A stretch of DNA of 64,000 bases from Actinomycetota bacterium (GTDB taxonomy: Bacteria; Actinomycetota; AC-67). Both the position numbers and the translations under genes were made by a program. Shown in pieces: positions 15,176 through 63,373 of the stretch (positions are counted from its first letter, which is position 1; every line of letters begins with the position of its first letter). The notes below the pieces were generated by a model that was not told the DNA's origin, searched no databases, and saw nothing but the letters and a program-made list of their open reading frames with translations. The stretch is from NCBI GenBank assembly GCA_044866075.1, contig JBIOTQ010000115.1, positions 10,607 through 74,606 on the forward strand. The letters run 5' to 3'.

Positions 15176-15198
15176 CTATCTGCGAGACAGTGGCCCGG

Positions 15199-44873: not shown

Positions 44874-47086
<2,213 letters not shown>

Positions 47087-47151: not shown

Positions 47152-48222
47152 TTACGCGAGCGAACGCGCGATCGTACCGCCGCCGAGGACCTCGTCGCCT
47201 GCGTAGAAGGCGACCAGTTGTCCGGGTGCGACGCCCCGCTGAGGGACGGCGAAGCGGACGGTCGCGGTGCCGTCTTCCACGCCCTCGAGGGTCGCCGCGA
47301 TCTGGGTTCCGTGCGCGCGGATCTGTGCCTGCGTGAAGGTTCCGGGCGAGGGCCGATCCGCGATCCAGGAGACGCGCTCCGCGACGAGGCCTCCGCGCGC
47401 GAGCAGCTCGCCGGGCCCGACGACGACGCGGTTGCGCGGCGCGTCGACCTCGAGCACGTACCGCTTCTCGTGCGTGGCCAGCCCGAGGCCGCGGCGCTGG
47501 CCGATGGTGTAGTGCGGCAGGCCCTGGTGCTCGCCGACAACGGCACCGCCGACGTCGACGATCTCGCCGGGCGCGGTACCGCCGAGCGCGCTCTCGACGA
47601 ACCCGCCGGCGTCGCCGTCGGGCACGAAGCAGATCTCGTACGAGTCGGGCTTGTCCGCGGTCCGCAGAGACAGCTCCCGAGCGATCGCGCGCGTCTGCTC
47701 CTTCGTCTGCCCGCCGACCGGGAACCGCGCGAACGCGAGCGCCTCCTGCCCTAGCGTCGACAGGACGTACGACTGGTCCTTGTTGGGGTCGGCGCTGCGC
47801 GACAGGCGCCAGGCGCCGCGCTCGAAGCGATTGATGGCGTAGTGGCCGGTCGCGACCGCGTCGAAGCCGGCGCGCTGCCCGCGCTCGAGCAGCGCGCCGA
47901 ACTTCACCGTCTCATTGCACCGCACGCAGGGGTTCGGCGTGCGGCCGCTCGCGTACTCGGCGACGAAGTCGTCGAGCACGCCGCGGGAGAACTCCTCGGT
48001 CAGGTCCCACACGTAGAACGGCACGTCGAGGACCTGCGCGACGCGCCGCGCGTCGTCCGCGGCCTCCACCGTGCAGCACCCGTGGACGCGGCCGGCGGAC
48101 TCGTGCGCGGGCGCGTTCGACAGCTTCATGTGCACGCCTGTGACGTCGTGCCCTTCCGCGACGAGCATCGACGCGGCGACGGACGAATCGACGCCGCCCG
48201 ACATCGCGACGAGGACCCTCAT
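47152..48222 (-). CDS. mnmA: tRNA 2-thiouridine(34) synthase
   Basis: MRVLVAMSGGVDSSVAASML... PP-loop and MnmA C-terminal domains. ATG overlaps the desulfurase stop (ATGA). The annotated 626-aa ORF is an upstream-extended artefact. Confidence 0.9.
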   Translation of the reverse strand: MRVLVAMSGGVDSSVAASMLVAEGHDVTGVHMKLSNAPAHESAGRVHGCCTVEAADDARRVAQVLDVPFYVWDLTEEFSRGVLDDFVAEYASGRTPNPCVRCNETVKFGALLERGQRAGFDAVATGHYAINRFERGAWRLSRSADPNKDQSYVLSTLGQEALAFARFPVGGQTKEQTRAIARELSLRTADKPDSYEICFVPDGDAGGFVESALGGTAPGEIVDVGGAVVGEHQGLPHYTIGQRRGLGLATHEKRYVLEVDAPRNRVVVGPGELLARGGLVAERVSWIADRPSPGTFTQAQIRAHGTQIAATLEGVEDGTATVRFAVPQRGVAPGQLVAFYAGDEVLGGGTIARSLA

Positions 48223-49367
48223 CGACCGCGCAGCCTGGCCGCGGACGCGATCACAGCGGCCGCGGCCGCGTCGACCTCGGCCTCCGTCGTGGATGGGCCG
48301 AGCGTGAGGCGCAACGCACCGCGCGCGGCCTCCCGCGGCACACCCATCGCGGCGAGAACGTGCGACGGCTCGGCGGCACCCGAGGAACACGCGGACCCCT
48401 GCGAGGCGGCGATCCCGGCCGCATCGAGCAAGAGGATCAGCGACTCGCCGTCGATCCGTTCGAGACAGAGGTGAAGGTTGTTGGGAAGGCGCCCGGCGCC
48501 GCGCGCGTTGACGCGCACGTCCGGAAGCCCGGCGGTGATGCGCTCCTCGAGCCGGTCGCGAAGAGCTGCGACCCGCGCCCCCTCGCCGGCCCGCGCCGCC
48601 ACCCAGCTCTCGATCGCCGCACCGAAGCCGACGATGCCGGCGACGTTGTAGGTGCCGGAACGGACCTCGCGCTCCTGCCCGCCGCCGTGGATCAAGGGCT
48701 GGACCTTCACGCCGCGCCGCACGACCGCCGCGCCGACGCCCTTGGGTCCGCCGATCTTGTGCGCGGACAGCGACAGCAGGTCGGCCGCACGCGCGTCGAC
48801 GTCGAGCCACGCAACACCCTGCACCGCGTCCGAATGGAACACCGCGCCGGCGGCGCGCGCGATCCGCGCCGCATCGGCGACCGGCTCGACGGTGCCGGTC
48901 TCGTTGTTCGCCCACATAACGCTCACGAGCGCCGTCTTGTCGTCGACCGCGGCCTCGAGGGCATCGAGCCGCACGACCCCGTTCGCGTCGACGCCAACCT
49001 CGCGCACGCGGAAGCCCTGCCGCGCCAGCCATCGGGCGGGGTCGAGCACCGCGTGGTGCTCGATCATCGTCACCACGACGCCGTCGCGTCCCTGCTCCCG
49101 GCCGTGCCAGGCCACGCCCTTGACCGCGAGGTTGTCCGCCTCGGTGCCGCCGGACGTGAAGACGATCTCGTCGGGGCGCGCGTTCACGGCGGCGGCGACG
49201 CGCTCGCGCGCCTCGTCGACGGCCTTGCGCGCCTCGCGGCCGGCCGCGTGGACGCTCGAAGCGTTCCCGAACCGGTCGCCGAGGAACGGCTCCATCGCCG
49301 CTCGCGCCGCATCGGAGAGCGGCGTCGTTGCGGCATGATCCAGATAGACGGACGTCTGCGTTTGCAC
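48219..49367 (-). CDS. iscS: cysteine desulfurase (IscS/NifS family, class V aminotransferase fold)
   Basis: ...LSLSAHKIGGPKGVGAA... PLP-Lys motif and the C-terminal SxHxLxAMG region. Confidence 0.85.
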   Translation of the reverse strand: MQTQTSVYLDHAATTPLSDAARAAMEPFLGDRFGNASSVHAAGREARKAVDEARERVAAAVNARPDEIVFTSGGTEADNLAVKGVAWHGREQGRDGVVVTMIEHHAVLDPARWLARQGFRVREVGVDANGVVRLDALEAAVDDKTALVSVMWANNETGTVEPVADAARIARAAGAVFHSDAVQGVAWLDVDARAADLLSLSAHKIGGPKGVGAAVVRRGVKVQPLIHGGGQEREVRSGTYNVAGIVGFGAAIESWVAARAGEGARVAALRDRLEERITAGLPDVRVNARGAGRLPNNLHLCLERIDGESLILLLDAAGIAASQGSACSSGAAEPSHVLAAMGVPREAARGALRLTLGPSTTEAEVDAAAAAVIASAARLRGR

Positions 49368-49426: not shown

Positions 49427-51619
49427 TCAGGCGATCAGCGGGCCGTTCGGGATCGTGTTCGCTTCGGCGGTCGTGATGGAAAACGCTGCCGCCGTCGAGT
49501 ACCCCATCGCGACGTAGAGGCTGTCGTTGTAGAAGGGGCGTTTGACGCCGTCCGCGTAGATCCATCGGGTCCCGGTCGGGCCCTTCAGGAGAGTTCCTTC
49601 GCGATAGGTCATCGGGGTCCCCACAGGGATCGCGACGTCGACGATGCTCATCGGAACGATCTCCGCGTCGCGATACCGGGACTTCCAGACGGTCACCGTG
49701 GGGTTGCGTCGCCGGAACCCGTTGTCGATCGTCCAGACGCTTCCGTCCGAGGCGCGTACGACGGCTCCTTGTGGGTGCACGGTGCCGTCAGAAATGTCCG
49801 GGCCCGTCGGCAGAGTCGCTAACTCCAGAGCGCTGATCGGGAGAGCCGAGGCGGCGGTGTATTTGAGCGCTTCGTAGACGCCGTCGTCGAACTGCCGAAC
49901 CTTTCCGGCGGAGTAGATCGCGTGCGTCCCGTCGGGCTCGGTCAGGAGCGTCCCTTCGCGAAGCTCGAGCGGGGATCCCGACGGATAACGGTCGACTTCT
50001 TGATCGGTCGTCGCGACGACCTCCGCCGCGCGGTACCAGCTGTTGAGCACCAGCTGCGACGTCACGAGGCGTGCCTTGCCGTCCTCGATCACGACGGTGC
50101 GAGTCGGCGTGCGGAGGATCGTGCCGTTCGGATGCTTGGTGACGAAGTAGGCGAGAAGGCTCGCGGGCCGAGCGACCAAGCTCCTCACGCTGGCCTTGAT
50201 CCTGACGGGCACGGCGCCCGTGTAGTCGGCCAGCGTTCCGACCGCCGTTCGTCCGTTCCACGTCGCGGTGAGGGATGAGCCGTAGCCGGTCAGCTTACGG
50301 AGGACCCCGCTGCCGCCGACCGTGAGGAACTCCACGCTCCAACTGAGACTCCTCGAGAACGTCGCCCGCACCGTCACGGTCTCGTTCTTGGTGTCCCCAT
50401 CGGGCCTGAGCACGGTCGACGAGATGGTCGGCAGGTAGATCTTCGGCAGCCCCATCGCGGCCACCGCTTTACGGATCGACGGAAGCAAGTAATAGGCCTT
50501 GGCGCCGGGGCACGCGGTCTGTTGCCCGTCGCGGTGGCCGGAGATCCGGTTGAAGGTCACCCTCGTCCCCGCCGCGTACTTGGGATTCCCTCCGGAGGTC
50601 ATCGTCACCTTGCCGGTGGGCGGCAGGTGGTGGACGTCGAGCTTCCACGCCAGCAGACGCTTCAAGGCGCTCTGCATCGCCGTCGTGGGTGTGGAGGACG
50701 TGAACGTGCCCATGAGCGAGATGCCGGTGCTTCCGGTGTTGAAGCCCTTCACGTGGGCGCCGATGACCGGCTTCGTCATGCCGCCGTACCGGCCCTCGAA
50801 GATCTGGCCGTAGCGGTCGACCAGGAAGTTGTAGCCGATGTCGCTCCAGCCGCGGTTGCTCGTGTGGAACTTGTAGATGCTGCGCACGAGAGCCGCGGAC
50901 TGGGACCTCGAGTACGAGTTCGTCCCGGCGGTGTGATGGACGAACGCCATCTGCACGGCCGGCGCGTACCGCGGGCAGCACTCGCGCCAGCTCTCGTTCG
51001 CTCCCCACTGCCGGCGCGTGATGATCGACGGCGTCGACGTCATCGCCTCTGCCTCGGTGCCGTGGAAGAACCGCGAGATGGCCGCGATGACCCGCTGGAA
51101 CAGGTTCAGCGGCTGCGAGTCGCCGAGCGAGTTGACGACGTGGGCGCGGAGGTCGAAGACCGCCGGAGCGCCGGGTTTGGCCGTGACGCGGTACGCCATC
51201 GCGTCCGCCGTCCCGACCCAGATCGGTGCGGTGAAGATTCGGTTGGCCGCGCGCTGCGCTTCGCGGGCCGACGTGTCGGGACCCTCGTCGGGCTCGACGG
51301 GCATCTCCTCCCAGGCGCCCCACCCGCTCTGCGTGTGGAAACGCGCCGTGATCGAGATGCCTTCTTCGATGGCGTCGTCGTCACGCGTGGTCGTCCGGAA
51401 GGACATCGCGACGAGGTTCGCTTGGATCGGCAGGCGGCGTGACGAGCGCTCGAGGGACGCGCCCGCTGCGCGCGATGCGGTCACGCGCTGTCCGCGCGCG
51501 AGCTCGAACGATCGATCGAGAGTTGCAGGGAAGCGCGGCTTAGCCGGCGCGGGTAGCGGAACGAGAACGGCCCACAGACTGGCGATGAGGGCGACGATGA
51601 ACAGGCGCCTGCGGATCAT
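49427..51619 (-). CDS. secreted N-acetylmuramoyl-L-alanine amidase (PGRP/Amidase_2 domain) with large C-terminal extension
   Basis: ATG at 51619. MIRRRLFIVALIASLWAVLVPLPAPA signal. PGRP core (ITRRQWGANESW...FVHHTAG...GWSDIGYNFLVDRYGQIFEGR). About 380 aa of additional beta-rich domains at the C-terminus. Confidence 0.75.
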   Translation of the reverse strand: MIRRRLFIVALIASLWAVLVPLPAPAKPRFPATLDRSFELARGQRVTASRAAGASLERSSRRLPIQANLVAMSFRTTTRDDDAIEEGISITARFHTQSGWGAWEEMPVEPDEGPDTSAREAQRAANRIFTAPIWVGTADAMAYRVTAKPGAPAVFDLRAHVVNSLGDSQPLNLFQRVIAAISRFFHGTEAEAMTSTPSIITRRQWGANESWRECCPRYAPAVQMAFVHHTAGTNSYSRSQSAALVRSIYKFHTSNRGWSDIGYNFLVDRYGQIFEGRYGGMTKPVIGAHVKGFNTGSTGISLMGTFTSSTPTTAMQSALKRLLAWKLDVHHLPPTGKVTMTSGGNPKYAAGTRVTFNRISGHRDGQQTACPGAKAYYLLPSIRKAVAAMGLPKIYLPTISSTVLRPDGDTKNETVTVRATFSRSLSWSVEFLTVGGSGVLRKLTGYGSSLTATWNGRTAVGTLADYTGAVPVRIKASVRSLVARPASLLAYFVTKHPNGTILRTPTRTVVIEDGKARLVTSQLVLNSWYRAAEVVATTDQEVDRYPSGSPLELREGTLLTEPDGTHAIYSAGKVRQFDDGVYEALKYTAASALPISALELATLPTGPDISDGTVHPQGAVVRASDGSVWTIDNGFRRRNPTVTVWKSRYRDAEIVPMSIVDVAIPVGTPMTYREGTLLKGPTGTRWIYADGVKRPFYNDSLYVAMGYSTAAAFSITTAEANTIPNGPLIA

Positions 51620-51732
51620 TTTCCCCCCAAGGGTCGACCAAACCGATATCGGAAGAGTAGTCGGCAAGGAAAGATAATGGCTTGAGCGATGCGAGCCTTT
51701 TGTGAGGCTGGCGAGAATTCTGTGAGAAAGTT

Positions 51733-51785: not shown

Positions 51786-53399
51786 CTACCCGATCACGAA
51801 GCCGTCGACGGCGATGATCCGGTCGGTCGATCTGCTGTTCCGCGTCGACGCCACCTTGATCGTGATCGTGTGAGTGCCGGCGGGCAGGTTCAGGATCGCG
51901 CGCAGGACCTTGTACGTCGTCGTCGAGCTGTAGTTGTCGAACAGTCCCTTCCGCACGCCGTCGATGTAGACGTACGCCTGCCCCATCGCCGGGCCGCGGA
52001 CCGTGCGCCACGCGATGCTCGTTCCGCTGAAGACGAAGCTCATCTCGGTTCCCGAGAACCGCGCGGCACGATAGGTCCCGCCGTCCGCGCCCGACGCGCT
52101 GATCGCCGCCCACCGGAACGATAGCGAGGGCGTGACGTTCGTCGAGCCGCCCGAGCGGAACGCGTCGATCGCCACCCGGACGTCCTTGGCCGCGCTCGAG
52201 CCCTTGCTTCCGGTCACGCGGATCGTGATGGTGTGCGCGCCAGCGGAGAGCCCTGAGAAGCTGCGGCCGACCTTGTACCGGGTCGACGACGAGTAGTTGT
52301 TCACGGTGCCAAACGATCGCCCGTCGATCGAAACGCTCGCCTTGCCCTGGTACGGGTCGGTGATCGTGTACCAGGCGATCGAGCTGCCGCTGAATCTGTA
52401 GGCGATAGAGGCGCCGGGCATGTTGTTCACGTAGTAGCTGCCTCCGTACGTCGACGAGTTCGAGAGGCTTCGCCATCCGTAGCGGACGCCGGGCGCGATC
52501 TCGTTCACGTTCGTGGCCGCCCGGAACTGGTCCGTCTTGTCGTCGAGCTCGTTGCCGGCGCGGTCCGTGATCGAGCCGGGCCCGTTCGGAAGCAGGACGG
52601 CGTCGTACTCCTGGCCGGCGGTGAGGTCTGAGACCGTGTTGGCCACGATGGTGTTCGTCGCCGAATCGTAGGACACGGTGACCGGGACTTCCGTCAGCGT
52701 GCCGTGGAGGCGCAGTGCCACGGAGCTCTGGCCGACGCCGACGACCGGCTCGCTGATCTTCCACGAGAGGTTCGCGCTCTGGTTGGCCGGCGCAGTGAAC
52801 AGGGCGGTCGGTGCGACCGTATCGGCGATGACCTGGTGCGATGGAACCGCCGTGATGCTCGGATCGAGCAGTCCCGTGTCGAAGGCATCCGCCGGCAGGG
52901 TCATCATGAAGTTGTCGCCGTTGGTAACGGAATCGCCCAGGCGGATCGACAGGAAGAACGTGTAGGCGCCCTCCTCCGCGGCCGGGAGCGGGTACGCGGG
53001 ACTGACCGCGAGCGTGGCGCGCAGGTTCGAATCGAACGAGAAGGTCGTCGGGACGACCGCGTCTGCGCCATCGAGCTTGTCCTGATTGGCACCCACCATT
53101 GAACTGTCGCGCCAAAGCTCGATGCCGTCGGGGTTGGCCTCGAGGTCGTCGACCCCGAACGTGCCGCCACCGGTCACCTGCGCGAAATCGACCCGGACCT
53201 CGCTGAGGTTGGTGGAGAGGCCGCTGCTGATCAGATCGATCCCGAACACGGGAACGTCGACGCCGATCTTCATGTACTGAGGGTTCGCGGTCAGGTCCGC
53301 GCCGCTCGGGCTCACGGCCATGGCCGGAACGGCCCCCGTCCCGATCGCCAGCAAGGCAACGGTCGTCACCGTAAGGACTCGTAGGAAACGCCTCATCAC
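51786..53399 (-). CDS. secreted cell-surface protein with Ig-like N-terminal region and two C-terminal ~105-aa beta-sandwich (CBM/SbsA-like) repeats
   Basis: Signal MMRRFLRVLTVTTVALLAIGTGAVPAMA. Internal repeats ...SIAWYTITDPYQGKASVSIDGRSFGTVNNYSSSTRYKV...GAHTITIRV... and ...SIAWRTVRGPAMGQAYVYIDGVRKGLFDNYSSTTTYKV...GTHTITIKV.... Confidence 0.6.
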   Translation of the reverse strand: MMRRFLRVLTVTTVALLAIGTGAVPAMAVSPSGADLTANPQYMKIGVDVPVFGIDLISSGLSTNLSEVRVDFAQVTGGGTFGVDDLEANPDGIELWRDSSMVGANQDKLDGADAVVPTTFSFDSNLRATLAVSPAYPLPAAEEGAYTFFLSIRLGDSVTNGDNFMMTLPADAFDTGLLDPSITAVPSHQVIADTVAPTALFTAPANQSANLSWKISEPVVGVGQSSVALRLHGTLTEVPVTVSYDSATNTIVANTVSDLTAGQEYDAVLLPNGPGSITDRAGNELDDKTDQFRAATNVNEIAPGVRYGWRSLSNSSTYGGSYYVNNMPGASIAYRFSGSSIAWYTITDPYQGKASVSIDGRSFGTVNNYSSSTRYKVGRSFSGLSAGAHTITIRVTGSKGSSAAKDVRVAIDAFRSGGSTNVTPSLSFRWAAISASGADGGTYRAARFSGTEMSFVFSGTSIAWRTVRGPAMGQAYVYIDGVRKGLFDNYSSTTTYKVLRAILNLPAGTHTITIKVASTRNSRSTDRIIAVDGFVIG

Positions 53400-53539: not shown

Positions 53540-54973
53540 TCAGCGTTCGGCGAACCGGCGGAACAAGCCCTCGGTCCCCGCGAGCCGGCCTTCGAGCTCG
53601 GAGTCGTTCGAGAGCACGATCTGGGTCGGAGGCGTCCCCCAACGCTCCAACTCCTCGTACAGCTCGATCAACGGTGTCGGGTCGTCCGTCCGTGGACGGA
53701 TGTAGACGAAGAACTGGCCCGACGGTTCACCGCCGACGAGCTCGATCTGCCACTGCGCCGCACGCGGCGCCGCGGAGACGGCCGCGAAGCGGAAGTCGAA
53801 CCGCACGGCCCGGCCGTCGAGCTTCACGCGACGCTGCCACGCGCCGCGACGCACGCTCGGCCCGACGCGCGGCACCGTCCGCCCGCAGTTCGGGCACGGC
53901 TGCGTCGTCACGCCGCCGAGCGCGAGGTCGCCCGAGCGCCACCGCGGCACGCCGCCGCCGCGGAACCCGAGCGGCGTGAGCGCGATCTCGCCCGGCGACT
54001 GCTGGCCCATCGGCTCGCCCGTCTCCGGGCTGAGCACCTCGATCACTTCCAGGTCGGGCGACGTGTGGAACCCAAAGGTCTCGGTCTTGCCGGCGGGAAC
54101 CGCGCACTCGGCCCAGAGGATGCGTCCTTCGGCGACACCATAGGCCGCGGCGATGCGCGCCTGCGATGCGTTCGACGCGGCGAGCTCTGCCCCCAGCCGC
54201 TCGCGTTCCGCTCGCGTGAGCGAGCGTCCGACGGCGATCACTACGGCGAGCTCGGACAGATCCACGCCCGCCTCACGCGCCGTCGCCGGAAAGTCGACCA
54301 CTTCCTCCGCGGCGACGGCGACCGCGGTCGGCCGCGCGGACTCGAACGCCCACAGCGCGCGGGCGAGCTCGCCGCCTTCGCGGCGCGAGTGGATCGCGCT
54401 CATCCCGACGCCGTGCGCCATGTAGTAGATGCCCCAGAAGTCGAGCGTCGGTCCGAACGGGATCAGGTTGAGCAACCGGTCGGTGCGTTCGAGACCGACG
54501 AGTTTCGCGGCACGGGCGCCGCCGCGTGCGAACAGGTCGAGGTCGTCGCGGGTGTAGGCGACTGTGATCGGACCGCCGGGCCCGGGCGCGAGATGGATGT
54601 GGATCGGCCGCGAGGCCGCCTCGATCGCGAGCTGTTGGACCTCCTCACCGCCGAAGAGACGCGCGGTCGCGACGCGGTACAGGACGCTGCGGTCGCTGAA
54701 GCGGCGGACGCCTTCCGAGGTTCCTTGGAGGATCAACCCCTGCGCGCCGTCCGGATTCCGGACCTGATCGAGGACCTCGACGCGCGTTGCCGGCGGGATC
54801 TGAGCGAGCTCGTCCAGTCCCTTGATCCGGCGGGCGTCGATGCCGGCCGCTTCCAGGCGCGCGCGCGCCGTCGGCACGTGACCGAGCTGCATCTGGAGCA
54901 GCGTCTGACGCACGAGCTGATCCTGGATGCGCCGGTTCTCGCTGGGTGAACGGTGGTCCCACGGGCGCGCCAC
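53540..54973 (-). CDS. phenylacetate-CoA ligase-like / F390-synthetase-like adenylate-forming enzyme
   Basis: PaaK-family architecture (N-terminal adenylation lobe, C-terminal ...CPNCGRTVPRV... region). I could not verify the AMP-binding motifs by alignment. Confidence 0.55.
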   Translation of the reverse strand: MARPWDHRSPSENRRIQDQLVRQTLLQMQLGHVPTARARLEAAGIDARRIKGLDELAQIPPATRVEVLDQVRNPDGAQGLILQGTSEGVRRFSDRSVLYRVATARLFGGEEVQQLAIEAASRPIHIHLAPGPGGPITVAYTRDDLDLFARGGARAAKLVGLERTDRLLNLIPFGPTLDFWGIYYMAHGVGMSAIHSRREGGELARALWAFESARPTAVAVAAEEVVDFPATAREAGVDLSELAVVIAVGRSLTRAERERLGAELAASNASQARIAAAYGVAEGRILWAECAVPAGKTETFGFHTSPDLEVIEVLSPETGEPMGQQSPGEIALTPLGFRGGGVPRWRSGDLALGGVTTQPCPNCGRTVPRVGPSVRRGAWQRRVKLDGRAVRFDFRFAAVSAAPRAAQWQIELVGGEPSGQFFVYIRPRTDDPTPLIELYEELERWGTPPTQIVLSNDSELEGRLAGTEGLFRRFAER

Positions 54974-55060
54974 GGCGCCGATTATACGAGCCCGCGGGTG
55001 GGGCGCCCGACGCTTCGCGCGATGGCCGTCCGCAGCCGAGCACGGCTACGATGCGCCGCC

Positions 55061-55801
55061 ATGACCGACGAGACCAACTCCGACGTCCTCAAGCTCACCG
55101 GCGAGCGGACTCTGCCCGGCATCCCCGAGGAGAACTACTGGTTCCAGCGGCACGTCGCCGCGTACGACTACGCCGCGTCGCTCGTCCGCGGACTGGAGGT
55201 CCTCGACGCCGGCGTCGGGGAGGGGTACGGCGCGGCGATCCTCGCGCGCGCCAGCGCGACAGTCGTGGGTGTCGACCTCGAAGCGGAGGTCGTCGAGCAC
55301 GCGTCCGCGCGGTATCCGGAGGTGCGTTTCGAGCGCGCCGATCTGCTCGAGCTTCCGTGGCCCGACGGGAGCTTCGACGCGGTCGTGTCCCTTCAGGTCA
55401 TCGAGCACCTGCAGCGGCCGCGCGAGTTCGTGTCCGAGGTCGCGCGCGTCCTGCGTCCCGGCGGGCGGCTGATCCTGTCGACCCCGAACCGGCTCACCTT
55501 CTCGCCGGACGGCATCCGCAATCCGTTCCACACCGTGGAGTTCGCGCCGGCGGAGCTGCGCGCGTTGCTCGAGACCGCGCTCACCGTCGAACGGCTGGCC
55601 GGGACGTTTCACGGGCCGCGCATCGCGCTCGGCGAGCGACTCGCGCGCGGCTCGTTCCCGGAACGGCTCATCACGACTCCCGTTCCCGAGTGGCCGCCGC
55701 GGCTGCGCCGCGCGGTCGCGCGCGTCACGCCGCGCGACTTCCGCATCCGCCACGCGCACGTCGAACGATCGCTGGATCTCGTCGCGGTCGCGCGGCGGTA
55801 A
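55061..55801 (+). CDS. class I SAM-dependent methyltransferase (MGLP-cluster type, cf. mycobacterial Rv3030)
   Basis: VLDAGVGEGYGAAILA SAM motif and a Methyltransf_11 core. Alternative ATG at 55022. Confidence 0.7.
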   Translation: MTDETNSDVLKLTGERTLPGIPEENYWFQRHVAAYDYAASLVRGLEVLDAGVGEGYGAAILARASATVVGVDLEAEVVEHASARYPEVRFERADLLELPWPDGSFDAVVSLQVIEHLQRPREFVSEVARVLRPGGRLILSTPNRLTFSPDGIRNPFHTVEFAPAELRALLETALTVERLAGTFHGPRIALGERLARGSFPERLITTPVPEWPPRLRRAVARVTPRDFRIRHAHVERSLDLVAVARR

Positions 55802-55805
55802 CGCG

Positions 55806-57344
55806 GTGGGCATCTTCGCTCTCGTCCTCCACACGCATCTGCCGTACGTCCGGCGCAACGGCGTCTGGCCGTCGGGCGAGGACTTCTTCCATCAAGCGGC
55901 CACCGAAAGCTACCTTCCGCTGCTCGAGACCTTCGAGCGGCTCGCCGGGAACCCGCGCTTGCGCGAGCCGTTCGCGACCGTCGGCATCACACCGCTGATC
56001 GCACACCAGATGCAGGACCCCTACATGCTACGCGAGCTGTCGCTCTACCTCGGCCGGCACGACCTGCGCGCGTGGTGGCAGGTCGCCAACTACGACGGCG
56101 TGTATGCCGAGGAGTTTAAGGACATCGCGGCGTTCTACGCGCGCTTCGCGCGCCGGCAGCTTGCGCGACTGGACGCGCTGCCGGGAGGCATGGCGCAGGC
56201 ATTCGGCGCGCTCGAGCGCGCGGGCTCGATCGAGATCATCGGAGGGCCGGCGTCGCACCCCGTCCTGCCCGAGATCGGCGAACCGTCGGTCCTGCGCGCG
56301 CAAGTGATGCACGGCGTCGCCGAGCATGAGCGGCTCTTCGGCCGCAAACCCAGCGGGATGTGGCTGCCGGAATGCGCGTACCGGCCCGGCGCCGGGATCG
56401 AGGAGACACTCGCCGGCGCAGGCGTCTCCCACATCGTCGTCGACGGGCCGACGATGATCCGCTCCGACGGCAAGGACGCCACCTTCCGCCCGCGGTCGAT
56501 CCGGGACGCGGGCGTGGCCGTGTTCGGCCGGAACCTCGACGTCACGTACCGCGTGTGGTCTCCGACCGGCGGCTACCCCACGAACAAGTGGTACCGCGAG
56601 TACTTCGCGTACGACATGACCGCCGGTTTCAAGGACTGGCGAGTTACGTCGATCCACACGCCGATCGCCGGCAAGAAGCCGTACGAGCCGGACCGCGCGA
56701 CCGAGCGCGCGCACAAGGACGCAGAGGATTTCGTCGCACAACTCGACGGATGGCTAACCCAGTACGAGGACCGCACCGGCGAGGAGGGCGTCGTCGTCGC
56801 CTGCTACGACACCGAGCTCTTCGGCCACTGGTGGTTCGAAGGTCCCGCCTGGCTCGAGCGCGTCTACGAGCTGCTCGCCGGCCACCCGCGGATCCGTCCG
56901 CTGTCGCTCGCGAAGGCGCTCGAACGCCTGCCGGCGCAGCGCGCCGTCGAGCTGGCCGAGGGCTCGTGGGGTTTCCGCAAGGACCTGCGGTCCTGGATCG
57001 CGCCCGAGACGGAAGAGATGTGGCGCGCGCTCGCCGAGACCGAGGCCGAGACGGTTCGCCTCGCGCGCAAGTGGACCGCGCCGTCGCCCGCGCAAGAGAC
57101 CGCCCTAGCGCAGCTCGCGCGCGAGCTGTTCCTCCTGCAGTCGAGCGACTGGCCGTTCATGGTCCTCCGCGGCCGGAACCCGCAGTACGCGTCCGAGCGT
57201 TTTTACGGACATCGCGACCGCTGGCAGCGGCTCGCCGACGCGCTGCTGCGCCGGATGCCGGATGCGTCGCTCGAACGGCTGGCGGGCGAGCTCTACGACG
57301 TCGACAACGCGTTCCCCAACCTGCGCGCGAGCGACCTCGCGTAG
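55806..57344 (+). CDS. glycoside hydrolase family 57 alpha-1,4-glucan branching enzyme-like protein (GH57 + DUF1957)
   Basis: GIFALVLHTHLPYV catalytic-site signature of GH57. GTG start 5 nt after the upstream TAA. Confidence 0.85.
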   Translation: MGIFALVLHTHLPYVRRNGVWPSGEDFFHQAATESYLPLLETFERLAGNPRLREPFATVGITPLIAHQMQDPYMLRELSLYLGRHDLRAWWQVANYDGVYAEEFKDIAAFYARFARRQLARLDALPGGMAQAFGALERAGSIEIIGGPASHPVLPEIGEPSVLRAQVMHGVAEHERLFGRKPSGMWLPECAYRPGAGIEETLAGAGVSHIVVDGPTMIRSDGKDATFRPRSIRDAGVAVFGRNLDVTYRVWSPTGGYPTNKWYREYFAYDMTAGFKDWRVTSIHTPIAGKKPYEPDRATERAHKDAEDFVAQLDGWLTQYEDRTGEEGVVVACYDTELFGHWWFEGPAWLERVYELLAGHPRIRPLSLAKALERLPAQRAVELAEGSWGFRKDLRSWIAPETEEMWRALAETEAETVRLARKWTAPSPAQETALAQLARELFLLQSSDWPFMVLRGRNPQYASERFYGHRDRWQRLADALLRRMPDASLERLAGELYDVDNAFPNLRASDLA

Positions 57345-57351
57345 ACCGAGC

Positions 57352-58179
57352 TCAGCTTCGGAGCGATCGCTCCTCGTAGGCCAGCGGCCAGGGGTTCGGT
57401 TTGCAGGTCTTGCCGTCGGTCGACAGGCCTTTCGACTGCTGCATCATCACCGGCGCCCAGGCGCCGTCCCGCGGGCAGTACCGGTGATGTTGCCCGAGCG
57501 TGTGGCCCACCTCGTGGTTGACGAGCATCTGCCGGTACACGGCCACCGGGCCCGGCCAGAACTTGGATCCGTGGAACCAGCGGTCCGAGTTGAGGACGAC
57601 CTCACCGGAGCCGGCGCACGAGTAGTAGAAGTTCACCGATAGCCCGATCAGCTGCTTGCAGCGCTTCTCGCTCGAGGCAGGCGTGCGCAGCCCGATCAGG
57701 AGCGCCCCCTTCGGGTCGTAGCGGAAGCGAACCTTGCCGCTTCCGATCCACGACCGCTCGTCGCAGAGGACGGACAGGATCCCCTGCACGAACCGGCTCG
57801 GAGTGGTCGCCAAGCCTGGCTCGATCATCACGCGGAAGCGAACCAGCCGCGCGTCCGGGCGGCCGCAGGTCGAGCTCGTCTGCGCCGGGCCCTTCAGCGT
57901 TGCGCGCGGCACGGCGGACGAGGGGAGACGCGGCGCCACCGCGGACAAAGACGTGCTCGCGCTCGGCGTCGCACTCGCGATCTCCGACGGGGTCTCGCTT
58001 GCCGACGCGCTCGCCGATCCGCTCGAGCTCGGCTTGATCTCGTCGACCAATCCGGCTCCCGCGCCGCCGGCGAAGCCGATGAGGAGACCGAGGATCGATC
58101 CGATCAGGGCCGGCTTCCAGGCGTGAACGAACTTGCTCAGGCGTTCCCCCAAATGAGTTCTGACGGTCGGGCCGCGCAC
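57352..58179 (-). CDS. membrane-anchored HExxH putative zinc metallopeptidase (DUF3152-like)
   Basis: GTG start. N-terminal TM helix, Ser/Ala-rich linker, HEVGHTLGQHH motif. Confidence 0.5.
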   Translation of the reverse strand: MRGPTVRTHLGERLSKFVHAWKPALIGSILGLLIGFAGGAGAGLVDEIKPSSSGSASASASETPSEIASATPSASTSLSAVAPRLPSSAVPRATLKGPAQTSSTCGRPDARLVRFRVMIEPGLATTPSRFVQGILSVLCDERSWIGSGKVRFRYDPKGALLIGLRTPASSEKRCKQLIGLSVNFYYSCAGSGEVVLNSDRWFHGSKFWPGPVAVYRQMLVNHEVGHTLGQHHRYCPRDGAWAPVMMQQSKGLSTDGKTCKPNPWPLAYEERSLRS

Positions 58180-58274
58180 AGGATACGGGGCGAAGCGTGG
58201 CCGAGCGAACCGGTCCGAATTGCTCCGCGATACACCGGCGTGAAAGGATTCCGCAACTTCAGGGGGCTGGTCGA

Positions 58275-59555
58275 TTGCGGATCCTCATACTTTCGTGGGA
58301 GTACCCGCCGCGTATCGTCGGTGGCCTGGGAAAACACGTCCACCGGCTGTCGCTTGCCCTCGCCGACGCCGGACACACCGTCCACGTCGTCACGCGCGAG
58401 CACCCCGACGCGCCGTCCGAGGAAGACGCCGACGGCGTCCACGTGATCCGGGTCGGTGAGTATCCGCCCGTCATCGAGTTCCACGAGCTGGTGCCGTGGG
58501 TCTTGCAGTTCAACGTCGGGGTCCTCGAGCGCGCGACGAAGCTGCTCCTCGACGAGGAGGTCGACCTCATCCACGCACACGACTGGCTCGTCGGATACGC
58601 GGCCGCCGGGCTCAAGAACCTCTTCGACCTGCCGCTCGTGTCGACCATCCACGCGACCGAATACGGCCGGCATCAGGGCTATCTGCCGGGCCCGATGAAC
58701 AAGCTCATCCACCAGATCGAGTGGTGGCTCACGTACGAATCTCGTCGCACGATCACCTGCTCGCGCTACATGCACGATCAGGTTCGCAAGATCTTCGACC
58801 ACCCGGCGGCCAAGATGGACGTCATCTCGAACGGCGTCGACCTTGACGCCGTGTCCGCGCCGCCGGGGATCGAGGAGTTCCGGACGAAGACGCTCGGACT
58901 CGACCCCGAGGAGAAGCTGATCGTCTTCGCCGGCCGCCTCGAGTACGAGAAAGGTGTGCAGACCGTCCTCGACGCCCTTCCCCACGTCTTGAAGAAGGTG
59001 CCCGTTCGGTTCATCGTCGCCGGCGTCGGGACCCACGAGGACGAGCTCCGCGCGCACGCGTTGCGCGACGGGTTGGACGGCGAGGTCGAGTTCCTGGGGT
59101 TCGTGCCCGAGGAGGAGCTGAAGATGTATTACGCGGCGGCCGATCTCGCGGTGGTGCCGTCGCTGTACGAGCCGTTCGGGATGGTCGCTCTCGAGACGAT
59201 GGCGGCCGGGACACCGTGCATCGCCGCCGACACCGGCGGCCTGCGCGAGCTCGTCGTACACGACGCGACGGGGCTCCGTTTCTCGCCCGGCGATCCGGCC
59301 TCGCTGGCCGACGCGATCCTTCGTCTCCTCACGGACAAGCGTCTCGACCGCCGGCTCACGCTCGACGCGCGCCGGTGGCTGAACGACGGCTTCTCGTGGT
59401 CCTCGATCGCCGACCGCACGGTGGAGGTCTACGAGCGCGCGATCCGCGAGGAGCGCGAGCTCCGTCGCACCCAGCGCCGGGACGAGCGCCCGCCGCTCCG
59501 GGCGATCCTGCGCCGGTCCGATCTGCTGGGCCTGGCCGGCGAACCGGCAGGCTAG
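58275..59555 (+). CDS. GT4-family glycosyltransferase (alpha-1,4-glucosyltransferase type, cf. Rv3032)
   Basis: TTG start after GGGGG, giving MRILILSWEYPPRIVGGLGKHV... (glycogen-synthase-like N-terminus) and the C-terminal E-x7-E region. The annotated start at 58197 is an extension. Confidence 0.85.
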   Translation: MRILILSWEYPPRIVGGLGKHVHRLSLALADAGHTVHVVTREHPDAPSEEDADGVHVIRVGEYPPVIEFHELVPWVLQFNVGVLERATKLLLDEEVDLIHAHDWLVGYAAAGLKNLFDLPLVSTIHATEYGRHQGYLPGPMNKLIHQIEWWLTYESRRTITCSRYMHDQVRKIFDHPAAKMDVISNGVDLDAVSAPPGIEEFRTKTLGLDPEEKLIVFAGRLEYEKGVQTVLDALPHVLKKVPVRFIVAGVGTHEDELRAHALRDGLDGEVEFLGFVPEEELKMYYAAADLAVVPSLYEPFGMVALETMAAGTPCIAADTGGLRELVVHDATGLRFSPGDPASLADAILRLLTDKRLDRRLTLDARRWLNDGFSWSSIADRTVEVYERAIREERELRRTQRRDERPPLRAILRRSDLLGLAGEPAG

Positions 59556-59623
59556 ACCCCCGTCGGCCGGTCGGGACTCCCGGCTCCTACAGTTCCGGGC
59601 GATCCGGGGCGACAATCCTAGGG

Positions 59624-59782
59624 ATGATCGGTCTCCTCGCAGGCATCTGCATCAAGGGCGACAACAACGTCTGCCCGCCCGGCAGCTACATGATCAAGGG
59701 CGAGTACCTTCTCATCGGGGCCTTCGTGTTCATCGCGATCGTCGGCCTGCTCTGGCTCGGCAGGCGCAGCCGCCGTCCGTGA
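59624..59782 (+). CDS. possible small membrane peptide (52 aa)
   Basis: MIGLLAGICIKGDNNVCPPGSYMIKGEYLLIGAFVFIAIVGLLWLGRRSRRP has two hydrophobic segments. Weak RBS. Confidence 0.25.
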   Translation: MIGLLAGICIKGDNNVCPPGSYMIKGEYLLIGAFVFIAIVGLLWLGRRSRRP

Positions 59783-59783
59783 G

Positions 59784-60536
59784 CTACGTCCCGCGCTGAA
59801 CCGCCGCTCCGCGCGTCTTCAGCACACGCCCCGGCACACCGCCCACGATCGAAAGCGGGGGCACGTCTCGGTTCACGAGCGCGTGCGACGCGATCACAGA
59901 TCCCTCACCGATCGTGACACCGCGCAGGACGGTCGACTTCTCGCCGATCCAGCAGTCGCGCCCGATCTTCACCGGCGACTTCACGATGCCTTGTTTCTTG
60001 ATCGTCATGGTGAGGTCGTCGAACTTGTGGTCGAAGTCGCAGACGTAGATCCAGTCCGCGAAGATGCAGTCGTCACCGATCTCGACGTCGAGGTAACAGT
60101 TGATCGTGTTCTTCGCGCCGAACACGACCTTGTTGCCGATGCGCAGGTTCCCCTCGTGGCAGCGGATCGCGTTGCCCTTGCCGATCCAGCACCAGCGACC
60201 GATGGTCATCCGCGCGTAGCCGCGGCGCGCGTACAGCTCGACCTTCGGGCCCAGGAAGATGAACCCCTCGGTCTTGATGTGCGGGTGCGTGATCTTGAAC
60301 TTCAGGAAGCGCAGCCCGAGCACCCAGTAGCGCCACGTGTAGAGCCGGTGAGAGACGATGAAACGGATCGTGCGGCCGACGCGCTTCCAGAACGACCTGG
60401 GGATCGGTGGCGGGGGCGGGATCGGCGCCAGCCGCGCGCCGGGCTCTATGACCTCGGCGGCCTCGGGAACGACCGGCTTCGGGTCGGGCGCGATCGCCGG
60501 CGGCTCGTCCGCCCTAGTGCGCGGGCTTCTCGGCAT
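59784..60536 (-). CDS. hexapeptide-repeat (LbH) acyl/acetyltransferase (cf. Rv3034c)
   Basis: Left-handed beta-helix repeats (IGDDCIFADWIYV...IGRDCWIGEKSTVLRGVTIGEGSVIASHALV). Start uncertain: ATG 60536 overlaps the upstream methyltransferase end by 23 nt. Confidence 0.7.
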   Translation of the reverse strand: MPRSPRTRADEPPAIAPDPKPVVPEAAEVIEPGARLAPIPPPPPIPRSFWKRVGRTIRFIVSHRLYTWRYWVLGLRFLKFKITHPHIKTEGFIFLGPKVELYARRGYARMTIGRWCWIGKGNAIRCHEGNLRIGNKVVFGAKNTINCYLDVEIGDDCIFADWIYVCDFDHKFDDLTMTIKKQGIVKSPVKIGRDCWIGEKSTVLRGVTIGEGSVIASHALVNRDVPPLSIVGGVPGRVLKTRGAAVQRGT

Positions 60537-61488
60537 GGAACAGAAGGTTGTAGAAGAGCGGCGGCGGCACGAGCCGGCGCGTGATGGCGTCGTCGAGCCG
60601 GTACAGGCGCAGGTAGTTGCGGTAGGCCCACCAGGCCCACTTCTCGCCAAGCACGCCGGGCGCCGCCAGCGCTTCGACGGTCCGGACGCTCCAGCCGAAG
60701 AACCCCGACACGAATTCCTCGGTCCGGATCATGATCGGATCGAACCCCGCGTCGCGCAGCCAGCCGCGGACCATGTGCGGGTGGAACTCGTGCAGGTCGA
60801 CGTGGCGCTCGAGCGCGGCGGCGGGATCGGGGTCCTTGCGGATATCGCCTTCGCGGACCAGGCCGGGACGCACGAGGCCGACCGCCTTGTACGCGTTCGC
60901 CGTCGCGCGCCGCGCGAGCTTGTTGACCGCGTGCCCTATGCGCGTCGGCTCCCCCGCGATGACGAGCGCGCCGCCCGGCTTGAGGACGCGGTAGCACTCC
61001 GCGAGCGACGCGGGAACGTTGGGCAGGTGGTGCAGCACGGCGTGCCCGACGACGAGGTCGAACGACCCCGTCTTATAGGGAAGGTTCTCCGCGTCGGCGG
61101 CGCGACCCTCGATGTTCTTCAGTCCGACGTTCCGCGCGTTGCGTTTGCAGACCTCGATCATGCCCGGCGAGATGTCCGTCGCGAACGCCTGCCGCACGAG
61201 CCCGGCCTGCCACAGGTTCACGATGAAGAATCCCGTGCCGCAACCGATCTCGAGCACCTTGCCGTACTTCCGGACCGGGGCAACCTTGGCGAACTTCTCC
61301 TTCGCGTACGAGATGCAGCGCTCGTCGAACGAGATCGACCACTTGTCGTCGTACTGAGCGGCTTCCCAGTCGTGATAGATGATGTTGCGCGTCTTCGCGT
61401 CGATCTCGCCCGGATCGTAAACGGGTCCGGCGCCCGGGTCGGGCACAGCGTGCAGCCGCGCGCGGGCGCCCTCCTCGATTGTCGTCAT
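60514..61488 (-). CDS. class I SAM-dependent methyltransferase (cf. Rv3037c/Rv3038c)
   Basis: VLEIGCGTGFFIVNL SAM motif. Confidence 0.75.
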   Translation of the reverse strand: MTTIEEGARARLHAVPDPGAGPVYDPGEIDAKTRNIIYHDWEAAQYDDKWSISFDERCISYAKEKFAKVAPVRKYGKVLEIGCGTGFFIVNLWQAGLVRQAFATDISPGMIEVCKRNARNVGLKNIEGRAADAENLPYKTGSFDLVVGHAVLHHLPNVPASLAECYRVLKPGGALVIAGEPTRIGHAVNKLARRATANAYKAVGLVRPGLVREGDIRKDPDPAAALERHVDLHEFHPHMVRGWLRDAGFDPIMIRTEEFVSGFFGWSVRTVEALAAPGVLGEKWAWWAYRNYLRLYRLDDAITRRLVPPPLFYNLLFHAEKPAH

Positions 61489-61532
61489 GGGGTCCTCACG
61501 ATACCCGCGCCCCGACCGGCGCTCGAAATCGG

Positions 61533-62318
61533 TCAGCGCCCGGTGAACTCGGCCTTCCCCGGACCTTGCTCGATGAAGGACGTCATCCCGATCTTCTGGT
61601 CCTCGGTGGCGAAGAGATTCACGAACAGCTCGCGCTCGATCAGCATCCCGTTCTGGAGGTCGGTCTGCAGGCCGCGGTTGATCGCGATCTTTGCGGCCCG
61701 CAGCGCCACCGTGGGGCCTTTCGCGTAGCGCGACGCGATCTCGACCGCTTTCGCGTACACCTGGTCCTGGGGGACGACGACGTCGGTGAGGCCGATCGCG
61801 AGCGCCTCGTTACAGTCGAGGAAGCGGCCCGAGAGGATGATGTCCTTCGCGCGCGCCGGACCGACGAGCCGCGGCAGGCGTTGCGTGCCGCCCGCGCCGG
61901 GGATGATGCCGAGGAGGATCTCCGGCTGGCCGATCTTCGCGTTGTCGGCCATCACGCGAAAGTCGCAGGCGAGCGAGAGCTCGCAGCCGCCGCCGAGCGC
62001 GAACCCGGTGATCGCAGCTATGACGACCTTGGGGATCTCCTCGACCTGGCTGAAGACGGCCTGCAGGCCGCCCATGCGCGCCATCATGTCCATCGGCGAT
62101 GCCTCGGCCATCTCTTTGATGTCGGCGCCCGCCGCGAAGATCTTGTCGCCGCCGAACACGATGACGGCTCGGACGGCGTCGTCTGTCGAGGCCGCGCGGG
62201 CGGCGACCTCGAGCTCCTCGACGACCTGTGTGTTGATCGCGTTCATCGGCGGGCGGTCGAGGCGGATCGTGCCGACGCCGGTGTCCTTGTCGATCTCCAG
62301 GTTGACGAACTCGCCCAT
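61533..62318 (-). CDS. enoyl-CoA hydratase/isomerase (crotonase family)
   Basis: ...VIVFGGDKIFAAGADIKEM...ITGFALGGGCELSLACD... crotonase signature. Confidence 0.85.
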   Translation of the reverse strand: MGEFVNLEIDKDTGVGTIRLDRPPMNAINTQVVEELEVAARAASTDDAVRAVIVFGGDKIFAAGADIKEMAEASPMDMMARMGGLQAVFSQVEEIPKVVIAAITGFALGGGCELSLACDFRVMADNAKIGQPEILLGIIPGAGGTQRLPRLVGPARAKDIILSGRFLDCNEALAIGLTDVVVPQDQVYAKAVEIASRYAKGPTVALRAAKIAINRGLQTDLQNGMLIERELFVNLFATEDQKIGMTSFIEQGPGKAEFTGR

Positions 62319-62348: not shown

Positions 62349-62834
62349 CTATCGTGCGGCGAGCCAGCTCTCGAAAGATGACTTGAGATCCTCGCCGCCG
62401 CGCGGCGGTTCCTTCTCGGCGAGCCAGGACTTCCTCTTGGCGTCGTCGTCGAGCACGACCCACTCGTAGCCGTAGGTGCGCGGCCCCGCCCAGAACGGCG
62501 CCGGCAGCCACCGCTCTTGCCTCAACTCGGCGACCGCCGCGTAGCCGACGCGGGGACGTCCCTGCCAGAAGTCCTCGACGTCGTGAAGGGGCGAGTCCTC
62601 AGTGCGCCGGCGGATCTCGTCGATGCGCGAGTACTCGCCGATCCAGCAGATCTTAACCACGGCGCGTGCGACGAACAGACCACCGTGCAACTGAACGTGA
62701 ACGATGTCCGGCTCGAACGCTCCGGCCTTGTGCGCGGGACCCTTTCGGTCGCGCGTCTCGACGGCGTAGGAGAGGCGCGGTGAGGACGCGGAACCGGTGA
62801 GATGCTCGAGCCGGCGGATGAGGACGTGATCCAT
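62349..62834 (-). CDS. hypothetical protein
   Basis: Start taken at MDHVLIRRLEHL. No domain recognised. Confidence 0.35.
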   Translation of the reverse strand: MDHVLIRRLEHLTGSASSPRLSYAVETRDRKGPAHKAGAFEPDIVHVQLHGGLFVARAVVKICWIGEYSRIDEIRRRTEDSPLHDVEDFWQGRPRVGYAAVAELRQERWLPAPFWAGPRTYGYEWVVLDDDAKRKSWLAEKEPPRGGEDLKSSFESWLAAR

Positions 62835-62902
62835 GAGTCCGGCTCCCGATAGTACCAATCGCGTCTCGGCTAGGATTGCGCGCCGTGAAGCTTCCGGGAC
62901 GC

Positions 62903-63373
62903 ATGGGACATCGTCGCGCGGTCGCGCAGGCGGGCGACCGTCGCCGCGCCGGCGATGCCGCCGGCGCGGTCGATCTCCTCGCGCCGGTGCTGCTGGCGGA
63001 CGAGGAGAACGCCGCCGCGAACGTCGAGATGGCGCGGGCTCTTCACGTGCTCGGCGACCTCGACGGCGCGGAGGAGCACTACCGTCGCGCCCTTCGCGCT
63101 GAGCTCGACTATCGCCTGGTCGTCGAGCTGGCCGGCGTTGTCGGTTCGGCCGGGCGCGTGCGCGAGGCGGAGGAGCTGCTCGGCGCGGCGCTGCAGATGA
63201 CCGAAGCGGTCGACGGGCTCGACCCGGGCGAAGCCCTGCTGGTGAGCGCGACGCTGGCGGCCGGTCAGGGGCGCAACGACGACGCGCGCGCGATCCTGGA
63301 CGAGATCGACGCCGGGGGCTCCGGCCAGGACGTCCGCGAGTACGCGCGACGCCTGCGCGAGAAGCTCCGCTAA
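62903..63373 (+). CDS. TPR-like repeat protein (hypothetical)
   Basis: Ala/Leu-rich helical repeats (…MARALHVLGDLDGAEEHYRRAL…). Start uncertain. Confidence 0.35.
   Translation: MGHRRAVAQAGDRRRAGDAAGAVDLLAPVLLADEENAAANVEMARALHVLGDLDGAEEHYRRALRAELDYRLVVELAGVVGSAGRVREAEELLGAALQMTEAVDGLDPGEALLVSATLAAGQGRNDDARAILDEIDAGGSGQDVREYARRLREKLR

Follow-up and report, generated by a model that had tools for sequence, protein, structure and literature searches.

Introduction

The methylglucose lipopolysaccharides (MGLP) are considered peculiar to mycobacteria and a few Nocardia. Their supposed role is to buffer fatty-acyl-CoA while lipids are being made, and several of the genes for their synthesis count as essential drug targets. 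In Mycobacterium tuberculosis, the MGLP cluster has been described as Rv3030–Rv3037c, with Rv3032 as a glucosyltransferase, Rv3030 and Rv3037c as methyltransferases, Rv3031 as a putative branching enzyme and Rv3034c as a putative acetyltransferase (PMC2674218). Rv3032 and Rv3030 have been implicated genetically in MGLP elongation and 6-O-methylation (PMC4555173, PMC2674218), Rv3031 and Rv3034c have been assigned by context only (PMC4555173), and the role of Rv3031 remains unassigned (PMC6629080). Here, we describe a locus in a 64-kb stretch of DNA from an Actinomycetota bacterium (contig JBIOTQ010000115.1 of assembly GCA_044866075.1; the whole stretch is referred to below as the window). We propose, with moderate confidence, that the region at 55061–61488 is the actinobacterial counterpart of the mycobacterial MGLP module, located on a chromosomal backbone that M. 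tuberculosis shares.

A second mycobacterial system, the methylmannose polysaccharide (MMP) cluster (PMC9883506), resembles the locus in combining a glycosyltransferase with methyltransferases dependent on S-adenosylmethionine (SAM) for the synthesis of a cytoplasmic polymethylated polysaccharide. The MMP cluster, however, uses a mannosyltransferase and the hydrolase MmpH, with no GH57 enzyme or acyltransferase, and none of those MMP genes is present in the window. The locus is an ordinary and conserved one, and the synteny is mostly confirmatory for this window, where an initial annotation had already pointed to the likeness with the MGLP locus.

Locus organization and correspondence to M. 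tuberculosis

With a G+C content of 68%, the window gives crowded lists of raw open reading frames (ORFs), and the real frames were picked by an analysis of GC content by codon position (GC3). This analysis backs the frames of the genes in 53540–62318, and their family assignments were confirmed with Pfam and NCBIfam. All the genes named in the initial annotation are there, their coordinates agreeing with those given to within a few codons, and they have significant matches to these families.

Three core genes are encoded on the forward strand: a SAM-dependent methyltransferase (MT1, 55061–55801; Pfam Methyltransf_11, 3.5e-26), for which an alternative GTG start exists at 54953; a GH57 enzyme with a BE_C domain (55806–57344; Pfam Glyco_hydro_57 and BE_C); and a retaining glycosyltransferase of family GT4 (58275–59555; Pfam Glycos_transf_1, 6.4e-45, and Glyco_transf_4, 9.1e-34), whose ORF opens at a GTG at 58197. 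The reverse strand carries a hexapeptide O-acyltransferase with a left-handed β-helix (AcT, 59784–60536; Pfam Hexapep, 1.2e-11), a second SAM-dependent methyltransferase (MT2, 60514–61488; Pfam Methyltransf_11, 1.2e-27) and an enoyl-CoA hydratase of the crotonase family (ECH, 61533–62318; Pfam ECH_1, 6.6e-69). The genes are closely packed, with the stop codon of MT1 4 nt ahead of the GH57 start, the end of MT2 overlapping the start of AcT by 23 nt, and ECH lying 44 nt upstream of MT2 on the same strand.

For the M. tuberculosis reference, an Rv3032 sequence served as a lead only. It matched, with 100% identity, a database protein labelled M. tuberculosis (P0121), and the tests rest on this database protein and the locus that encodes it, on a contig of GCA_001322985.1 (L083; the other loci fetched for comparison are numbered likewise). 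The order of genes in L083 is mnmA, iscS, a PlsC-type acyltransferase, an Acetyltransf_5 protein, etfA and etfB, followed by a methyltransferase, GH57, GT4, a 129-aa ORF and a DUF4333 protein, and then by a hexapeptide transferase, a PQQ-like protein, a DUF3298 protein, a THUMP-like methyltransferase, another methyltransferase, ECH, and NUDIX and ABC proteins, an arrangement known as Rv3024c–Rv3041c. The same order is found in M. haemophilum (L084), and the order in L083 agrees with the published MGLP cluster (PMC2674218).

Six pairs of proteins are reciprocal best matches between the window and the M. tuberculosis locus: MT1 and Rv3030 (47% identity, 179 bits, the next best match being Rv3038c with 41 bits), GH57 and Rv3031 (36%, 270 bits by BLASTP), GT4 and Rv3032 (40%, 256 bits), AcT and Rv3034c (53%, 209 bits), MT2 and Rv3038c (45%, 256 bits), and ECH and Rv3039c (EchA17; 44%), the last a positional counterpart. 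All six pairs share their order and orientation in the two loci, namely methyltransferase, GH57 and GT4 on one strand, then hexapeptide acyltransferase, methyltransferase and ECH on the other, with the mnmA–iscS backbone upstream in both. The pairing of the first methyltransferase, GH57 and GT4 with Rv3030, Rv3031 and Rv3032 is as the initial annotation had supposed.

The two loci also differ. The window lacks Rv3026c, Rv3027c and fixAB between iscS and MT1, and further on lacks Rv3033, Rv3035, Rv3036c and Rv3037c; none of these proteins, nor Rv3040c, has a match in the 64 kb. It contains in addition a PaaK-like protein, a DUF3152 protein, a 52-aa membrane peptide and two exported proteins. 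The initial annotation had claimed that the MGLP gene set and order are reproduced, which stands for the six matched pairs; the second methyltransferase, though, is of the Rv3038c type, and Rv3037c has no counterpart. It had further placed the M. tuberculosis cluster downstream of gatCAB–ligA–mnmA–iscS "exactly as here": the position downstream of mnmA–iscS is indeed shared, and the wording was too strong in view of the genes without counterparts listed above, from Rv3026c to Rv3037c.

Conservation of the module across Actinomycetota

One scan of species-representative genomes with a GH57 alignment headed by a protein of a 'Mycobacteriales' MAG yielded 80 loci, none of them from Mycobacterium, in Frankiaceae, Pseudonocardiaceae and similar taxa. 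Conservation was counted by tblastn of the window proteins, and of those specific to M. tuberculosis, against the fetched loci, with the 60 loci whose flank on the side in question reaches 8 kb or more as denominators. The recurrent pattern is ligA–mnmA–iscS–(PaaK-like, or Rv3026c–Rv3027c)–fixB–fixA / MT1–GH57–GT4 / AcT–(Rv3037c)–MT2–ECH, and it was found in Frankiaceae, Pseudonocardiaceae (Amycolatopsis, Pseudonocardia, Prauserella and others), Geodermatophilaceae, Nanopelagicales and unclassified metagenome-assembled genomes (MAGs). This order recurs in most of the 80 genomes; since the same order is present in dozens of independent genomes, the arrangement is not due to chance.

The individual genes are conserved to different extents. 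MT1 is adjacent to GH57 in 59 of the 60 loci, fixA is found in 50, GT4 in its syntenic position also in 50, AcT in 38, MT2 in 31 and ECH in 27; the PaaK-like protein is present in two and DUF3152 in one. An Rv3038c-type methyltransferase next to the acyltransferase is thus far commoner than Rv3037c (5/60), yet only Rv3037c belongs to the published cluster.

The most informative locus is that of a Nitriliruptorales MAG (L085, GCA_046263195.1; 5846–20282), in which MT1, GH57, GT4, AcT and MT2 are all missing, while ECH (55% identical to the window ECH), etfB, etfA, the PaaK-like gene, iscS, mnmA and ligA are retained. This joint absence, with both flanks persisting, argues for the five glucan genes behaving as one module and forming a functional unit. 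By the same comparison, ECH and the PaaK-like protein are flanking or backbone genes, and not demonstrably part of the pathway, because both remain where the glucan genes are absent. ECH, which the initial annotation had counted in the cluster, does match Rv3039c in position. The place of the missing genes in L085 is taken by a DUF2905 gene and an unannotated gene of 293 aa.

The likeness to Rv3030–Rv3039c might instead reflect an old conserved backbone that is co-linear by descent and holds no functional unit. The whole window is indeed co-linear with the actinobacterial backbone, as leuCD, aceE, leuA, serA, ilvC, ilvN, ilvB and ilvD show in addition to gatBAC, ligA, mnmA and iscS (the gatBAC–ligA–mnmA–iscS order being shared with L066, L003, L005, L081, L082 and L085), and ECH and the PaaK-like gene do act as backbone genes. 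The five glucan genes, however, are lost as a block between two retained flanks in L085, the 4-nt gap and the 23-nt overlap indicate translational coupling, and genetic work in mycobacteria links both Rv3030 and Rv3032 with a single product (PMC2674218, PMC4555173). Conserved backbone without a functional unit is thus a very unlikely account of the locus, and the genes are treated below as an MGLP-like module.

Core enzymes

The GH57 enzyme keeps the catalytic Glu (in PECAY) and Asp (in DTELFGHWW), as does Rv3031, and all five conserved regions of GH57 seem to be present. An alignment with the Thermococcus, Pyrococcus and Thermus enzymes (3n8t, 5wu7 and 1ufa) shows that it lacks about 13 residues at the β5–β6 insertion and about 12 at the flexible loop tipped by a tyrosine, and Rv3031 shows both of these deletions. 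Among some 2500 GH57 'branching enzymes' that have been surveyed, proteins without the loop and the β5–β6 elements showed very low or no branching, Rv3031 was inactive on amylose, and loop-less proteins made up 92% of the sequences of the glycogen branching enzyme type (PMC9291813). The window GH57 therefore possesses the catalytic residues and lacks the structural elements, the loop with its tip tyrosine and the β5–β6 insertion, that substantial branching requires. It resembles Rv3031 and the other loop-less 'glycogen branching enzyme-like' proteins in both respects; the characterised members of this group show low or no branching on amylose.

These features bear on the possibility that GT4 and GH57 are a GlgA-like synthase and a branching enzyme for ordinary storage glycogen, with the methyltransferases and the acyltransferase as unrelated neighbours. 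The best NCBIfam matches of GH57 are the branching-enzyme models of Thermococcales and Thermus, and GT4 matches glycogen-synthase models and structures, which speaks for storage glycogen. Those matches, however, fall far below the family cut-offs (373 vs 1000 bits), GH57 is devoid of the elements tied to branching (PMC9291813), MT1 is only 4 nt away from GH57 and almost always its neighbour, and the five genes vanish together in L085. We therefore regard a role in storage glycogen as unlikely.

GT4 carries the E-x7-E motif (EPFGMVALE in the translation). It scores 103–118 bits against its solved relatives in the PDB, archaeal GlgA, MshA and mycobacterial GlgM, compared with 256 bits against Rv3032. 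The nearest solved relatives of AcT are maltose O-acetyltransferases (9e-16), which acetylate maltose or glucose. Maltose O-acetyltransferase (Maa) and other hexapeptide sugar O-acetyltransferases align with the C-terminal left-handed β-helix region of AcT, which differs from them by an N-terminal extension of about 100 residues that is shared in kind with Rv3034c. Structure-database searches returned no mycobacterial structures for the proteins of this locus. The core enzymes contain no segments resembling transmembrane helices, which fits a cytoplasmic product.

The domain content of these genes, their correspondence to Rv3030, Rv3031, Rv3032, Rv3034c, Rv3038c and Rv3039c, the catalytic motifs that were checked, the lack of membrane segments and the gain and loss as a unit are direct observations. 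The chemistry of the steps and the nature of the product are carried over from the mycobacterial literature. By analogy, the Rv3032-type GT4 would extend a short cytoplasmic α-1,4-glucan using a nucleoside diphosphate glucose, and the loop-less, Rv3031-type GH57 may perform a specialised transfer or trimming of the α-glucan; the corresponding step in mycobacteria has been proposed to be the formation of an α-1,6 link near the reducing end, and not glycogen branching. MT1, of the Rv3030 type, would O-methylate glucose units with SAM, and MT2, of the Rv3038c type, would add a second kind of methyl group. AcT, which is like maltose O-acetyltransferase and of the Rv3034c type, would transfer short acyl groups from acyl-CoA onto sugar hydroxyls.

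Several points weigh against assigning the locus to MGLP-like synthesis. For Rv3031, Rv3034c and Rv3038c, even the functions in mycobacteria are no more than proposals. The only organisms from which MGLP has been isolated are mycobacteria and some Nocardia (PMC3240985, PMC4555173). The identities to the mycobacterial enzymes are moderate (36–53%), and the reciprocity of the matches is local, between the 64-kb window and a 20-kb M. tuberculosis locus, and does not extend to whole genomes. Archaeal GH57 branching enzymes score 324 bits by phmmer against the window GH57 and Rv3031 scores 270 bits by BLASTP, two programs that differ in scoring; because the archaeal enzymes score as well, the assignment of GH57 to the Rv3031 type depends mainly on its position and on the shared loop deletions. 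Rv3037c, the THUMP-like methyltransferase of the published cluster, has no tblastn match in the window. The families of GpgS (Rv1208), GpgP (Rv2419c) and OctT (Rv2418c), which supply the primer in the mycobacterial pathway, are absent from the family-scan results for about 45 ORFs of the window, in which no search was aimed at these three.

PaaK-like protein

The PaaK-like protein (53540–54973, reverse strand) is divergent from MT1 across a spacer of 87 nt (54974–55060). The initial annotation had supposed that this protein, as an adenylating enzyme, and likewise the DUF3152 protein and the 52-aa peptide, may acylate or process the polymer. In such an enlarged MGLP pathway, the PaaK-like protein would activate acyl groups, and DUF3152 and the peptide would process or anchor the polymer. 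The evidence on each of the three is set out here and in the following section.

The full two-domain fold of the PaaK family is predicted for the protein: an AlphaFold2 (AF2) model built from 53 family members has a mean confidence (pLDDT) of 94, and its top Foldseek matches are PaaK1 and PaaK2 of Burkholderia cenocepacia, BT_0428 and 2-hydroxyisobutyryl-CoA ligase (E = 4.6e-29 for PaaK1; TM-scores of 0.61–0.68). The motifs EC...GxH...CPxCGR are also common to these ligases and the window family. In contrast, matches to the NCBIfam PaaK families are far below the cut-offs (1e-10 to 1e-21, the best being 7.9e-21; 74 bits vs a cut-off of 700), and the window family has no conserved phosphate-binding loop. 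The loop SSGTTGxP of PaaK is replaced by APG-PGGPI in the window protein and by AG-RSLRYP, AG-SALTFP and DG-LAFRFP in distant members, with a single invariant Gly among the 53 sequences. No invariant or nearly invariant Lys was found in the alignment of these sequences, whose C-terminal domain is not alignable residue by residue to that of solved PaaK. From these sequence features, a canonical adenylating role is doubtful. The NCBI call for the protein (P0241, 457 aa) begins 20 codons late, as the conserved residues W5 and D6 lie upstream of that start.

The family is small, with 157 matches in a word-indexed search, all from uncultured Actinomycetota, Nitriliruptorales and 'Mycobacteriales' MAGs, and has no characterised member. 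In each of the four relatives whose loci were fetched (L081, L082, L087 and L088), the gene adjoins MT1; the GH57 identities in these loci range from 100% to 63%. About 27 further pairs of GH57 and PaaK-like genes seem, from contigs of equal length, to share a contig, which suggests that the association extends down to a GH57 identity of about 44%. The order etfB–etfA–PaaK-like is found in six more distant loci (L001, L002, L006, L008, L085 and L086). The position next to MT1 is best explained by the loss of etfBA from between the two genes, and the PaaK-like gene probably belongs to the backbone, with an ancestral place downstream of etfBA. In favor of a part in the pathway, it stays beside MT1 in the lineage of the window despite two genes inserted toward iscS. 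Against this, the family has neither a conserved phosphate-binding loop nor a conserved Lys, the gene directly follows etfBA elsewhere, occurs in just two of the 60 distant module loci, and persists in L085 without the glucan genes. The proposal that it acylates or processes the polymer is thus not upheld. As a side issue, this PaaK-fold protein without a phosphate-binding loop may be an undescribed partner of EtfBA or a lineage-specific accessory of the module.

DUF3152, the 52-aa peptide and exported proteins

The DUF3152 protein (57352–58179, reverse strand; Pfam DUF3152, 3.3e-29) consists of an N-terminal membrane anchor (a transmembrane-like segment at residues 24–42), a low-complexity linker rich in Ser, Ala, Thr and Pro, and a domain with a metzincin-type HExxHxxGxxH motif (HEVGHTLGQHH). 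Its similarity to the catalytic site of MMP-2 is weak and not significant (E = 0.23), and a single-sequence AF2 model of the domain (pLDDT 33) was unusable. GH57 and GT4 flank the gene in the window and in L081, L082 and L087; the close relative L088 lacks it. In an unrelated Actinomycetota MAG (L020, 5814–6338), a DUF3152 gene whose product is 36% identical to that of the window lies between fixA and MT1, a second and independent adjacency that may be due to chance. DUF3152 is an accessory, lineage-variable protein that probably faces outward.

The 52-aa peptide (59624–59782, forward strand; GC3 0.91) has a C-x7-CPPGS motif, one transmembrane helix and a basic tail of Arg and Lys. Homologous ORFs of 50–52 aa directly follow GT4 in the window, in L081 (13809–13967), in L087 (14968–15123) and in L088 (12904–13056), with the Cys pair, the helix and the tail in common. 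Because of this conservation in four genomes and its high GC3, the ORF is considered a real gene on sequence grounds. No counterpart was found in the 80 more distant loci, and the position after GT4 in M. tuberculosis is occupied by the 129-aa ORF and the DUF4333 protein Rv3033, which have no similarity to the peptide. A lipoprotein reading of the peptide was considered and rejected: 'LAGIC' departs from the lipobox pattern, and the N-terminal region is not long enough. In L087, a Sulfotransfer_2 gene (15120–15821) lies between the small peptide and the acyltransferase, and a DUF559/MTES_1575 gene (12428–13036) lies beside DUF3152; these inserts may reflect decoration particular to the lineage, or simply sites prone to insertion.

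For the enlarged pathway, the constant position of the 52-aa ORF after GT4 in four genomes and the second, independent arrangement in which DUF3152 adjoins the module (L020) can be added to the persistence of the PaaK-like gene beside MT1. However, L088 has no DUF3152 gene, and the protein is predicted to be outward-facing, in contrast to the cytoplasmic core enzymes; a peptidase has no obvious role on a cytoplasmic glucan, and the 52-aa peptide has no counterpart beyond close relatives. Neither is therefore supported as a processor of the polymer, and, with the evidence on the PaaK-like protein, an MGLP pathway enlarged in this way is improbable.

The two exported proteins, with Pfam matches to Amidase_2 (49427–51667, reverse strand) and to Big_5/CE2_N (51786–53399, reverse strand), each have an N-terminal hydrophobic anchor. 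Their genes separate iscS from the PaaK-like gene and, outside the window, are present only in its close relatives L081, L082, L087 and L088; they are lineage-specific insertions outside the module. ECH, the PaaK-like protein, DUF3152, the 52-aa peptide and the two exported proteins are thus best viewed as neighbours of the five-gene module, and the involvement of most of them in the pathway is unlikely.

Genomic context and host lineage

The backbone genes upstream of the module are all on the reverse strand and comprise gatB (about 41273–42757), gatA (43095–44567), gatC (44571–44864), ligA (44874–46886) and mnmA (about 47152–48222), each matched above cut-off by the respective NCBIfam equivalog model (GatB, GatA, GatC, LigA and MnmA), and iscS (48219–49367), likewise matched above cut-off by an NCBIfam model for cysteine desulfurases of the NifS/IscS type. 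The MnmA, IscS and LigA proteins are about 45–57% identical to those of M. tuberculosis, Frankiaceae and the Nitriliruptorales MAG alike. In a protein database search, the closest relatives of GH57 (77% identity and below) are all labelled Actinomycetota bacterium MAGs, and relatives labelled Mycobacteriales, Frankia or Acidimicrobiia first appear at about 40% identity. From these sequence identities, the host is assigned to a deep, uncultured actinobacterial lineage that is no close relative of mycobacteria.

Other parts of the window contain several genes of note. Just downstream of gatB are two adjacent paralogues of 247 and 275 aa (39370–40940, reverse strand), each with DUF4234. A 789-aa ORF (21453–23822, reverse strand) whose GC3 of 0.86 is a strong coding signal, and which has no Pfam or NCBIfam match, lies between a dienelactone-hydrolase-like gene and leuA. 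After ECH, a divergent pair (62349–63373) encodes a 169-aa protein without a family match and a 165-aa TPR protein; the pair is kept at 82–88% identity in L081 (16503–17554), and genes of similar size follow ECH in L087 and L088. The next genes beyond that pair in L081 and L088 encode an NAD-binding epimerase-like protein, a methylmalonyl-CoA-mutase-type protein, MeaB and another methyltransferase. Rfam and tRNA scans of the window gave no hits, and scans for promoters and terminators gave nothing above the shuffled expectation.

Implications

No description of the distribution of the cluster outside Corynebacteriales was found in the open-access literature, and a 2024 review of α-glucans does not mention MGLP. 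We put forward, tentatively and as somewhat less probable than not, that the five-gene module is ancestral in Actinomycetota, that lineages far from Mycobacterium and Nocardia (this deep lineage, Frankiaceae, Pseudonocardiaceae and freshwater Nanopelagicales) make MGLP-like methylated and acylated glucans, and that the conserved second methyltransferase is of the Rv3038c type and not Rv3037c. The occurrence of the same core module at the same chromosomal place in many actinobacterial families and in a deep lineage suggests that this class of polymer is older and more widespread than the chemistry shows. Amycolatopsis or Pseudonocardia would be non-pathogenic and easily grown hosts for working out the still unassigned steps of Rv3031, Rv3034c and Rv3038c versus Rv3037c.

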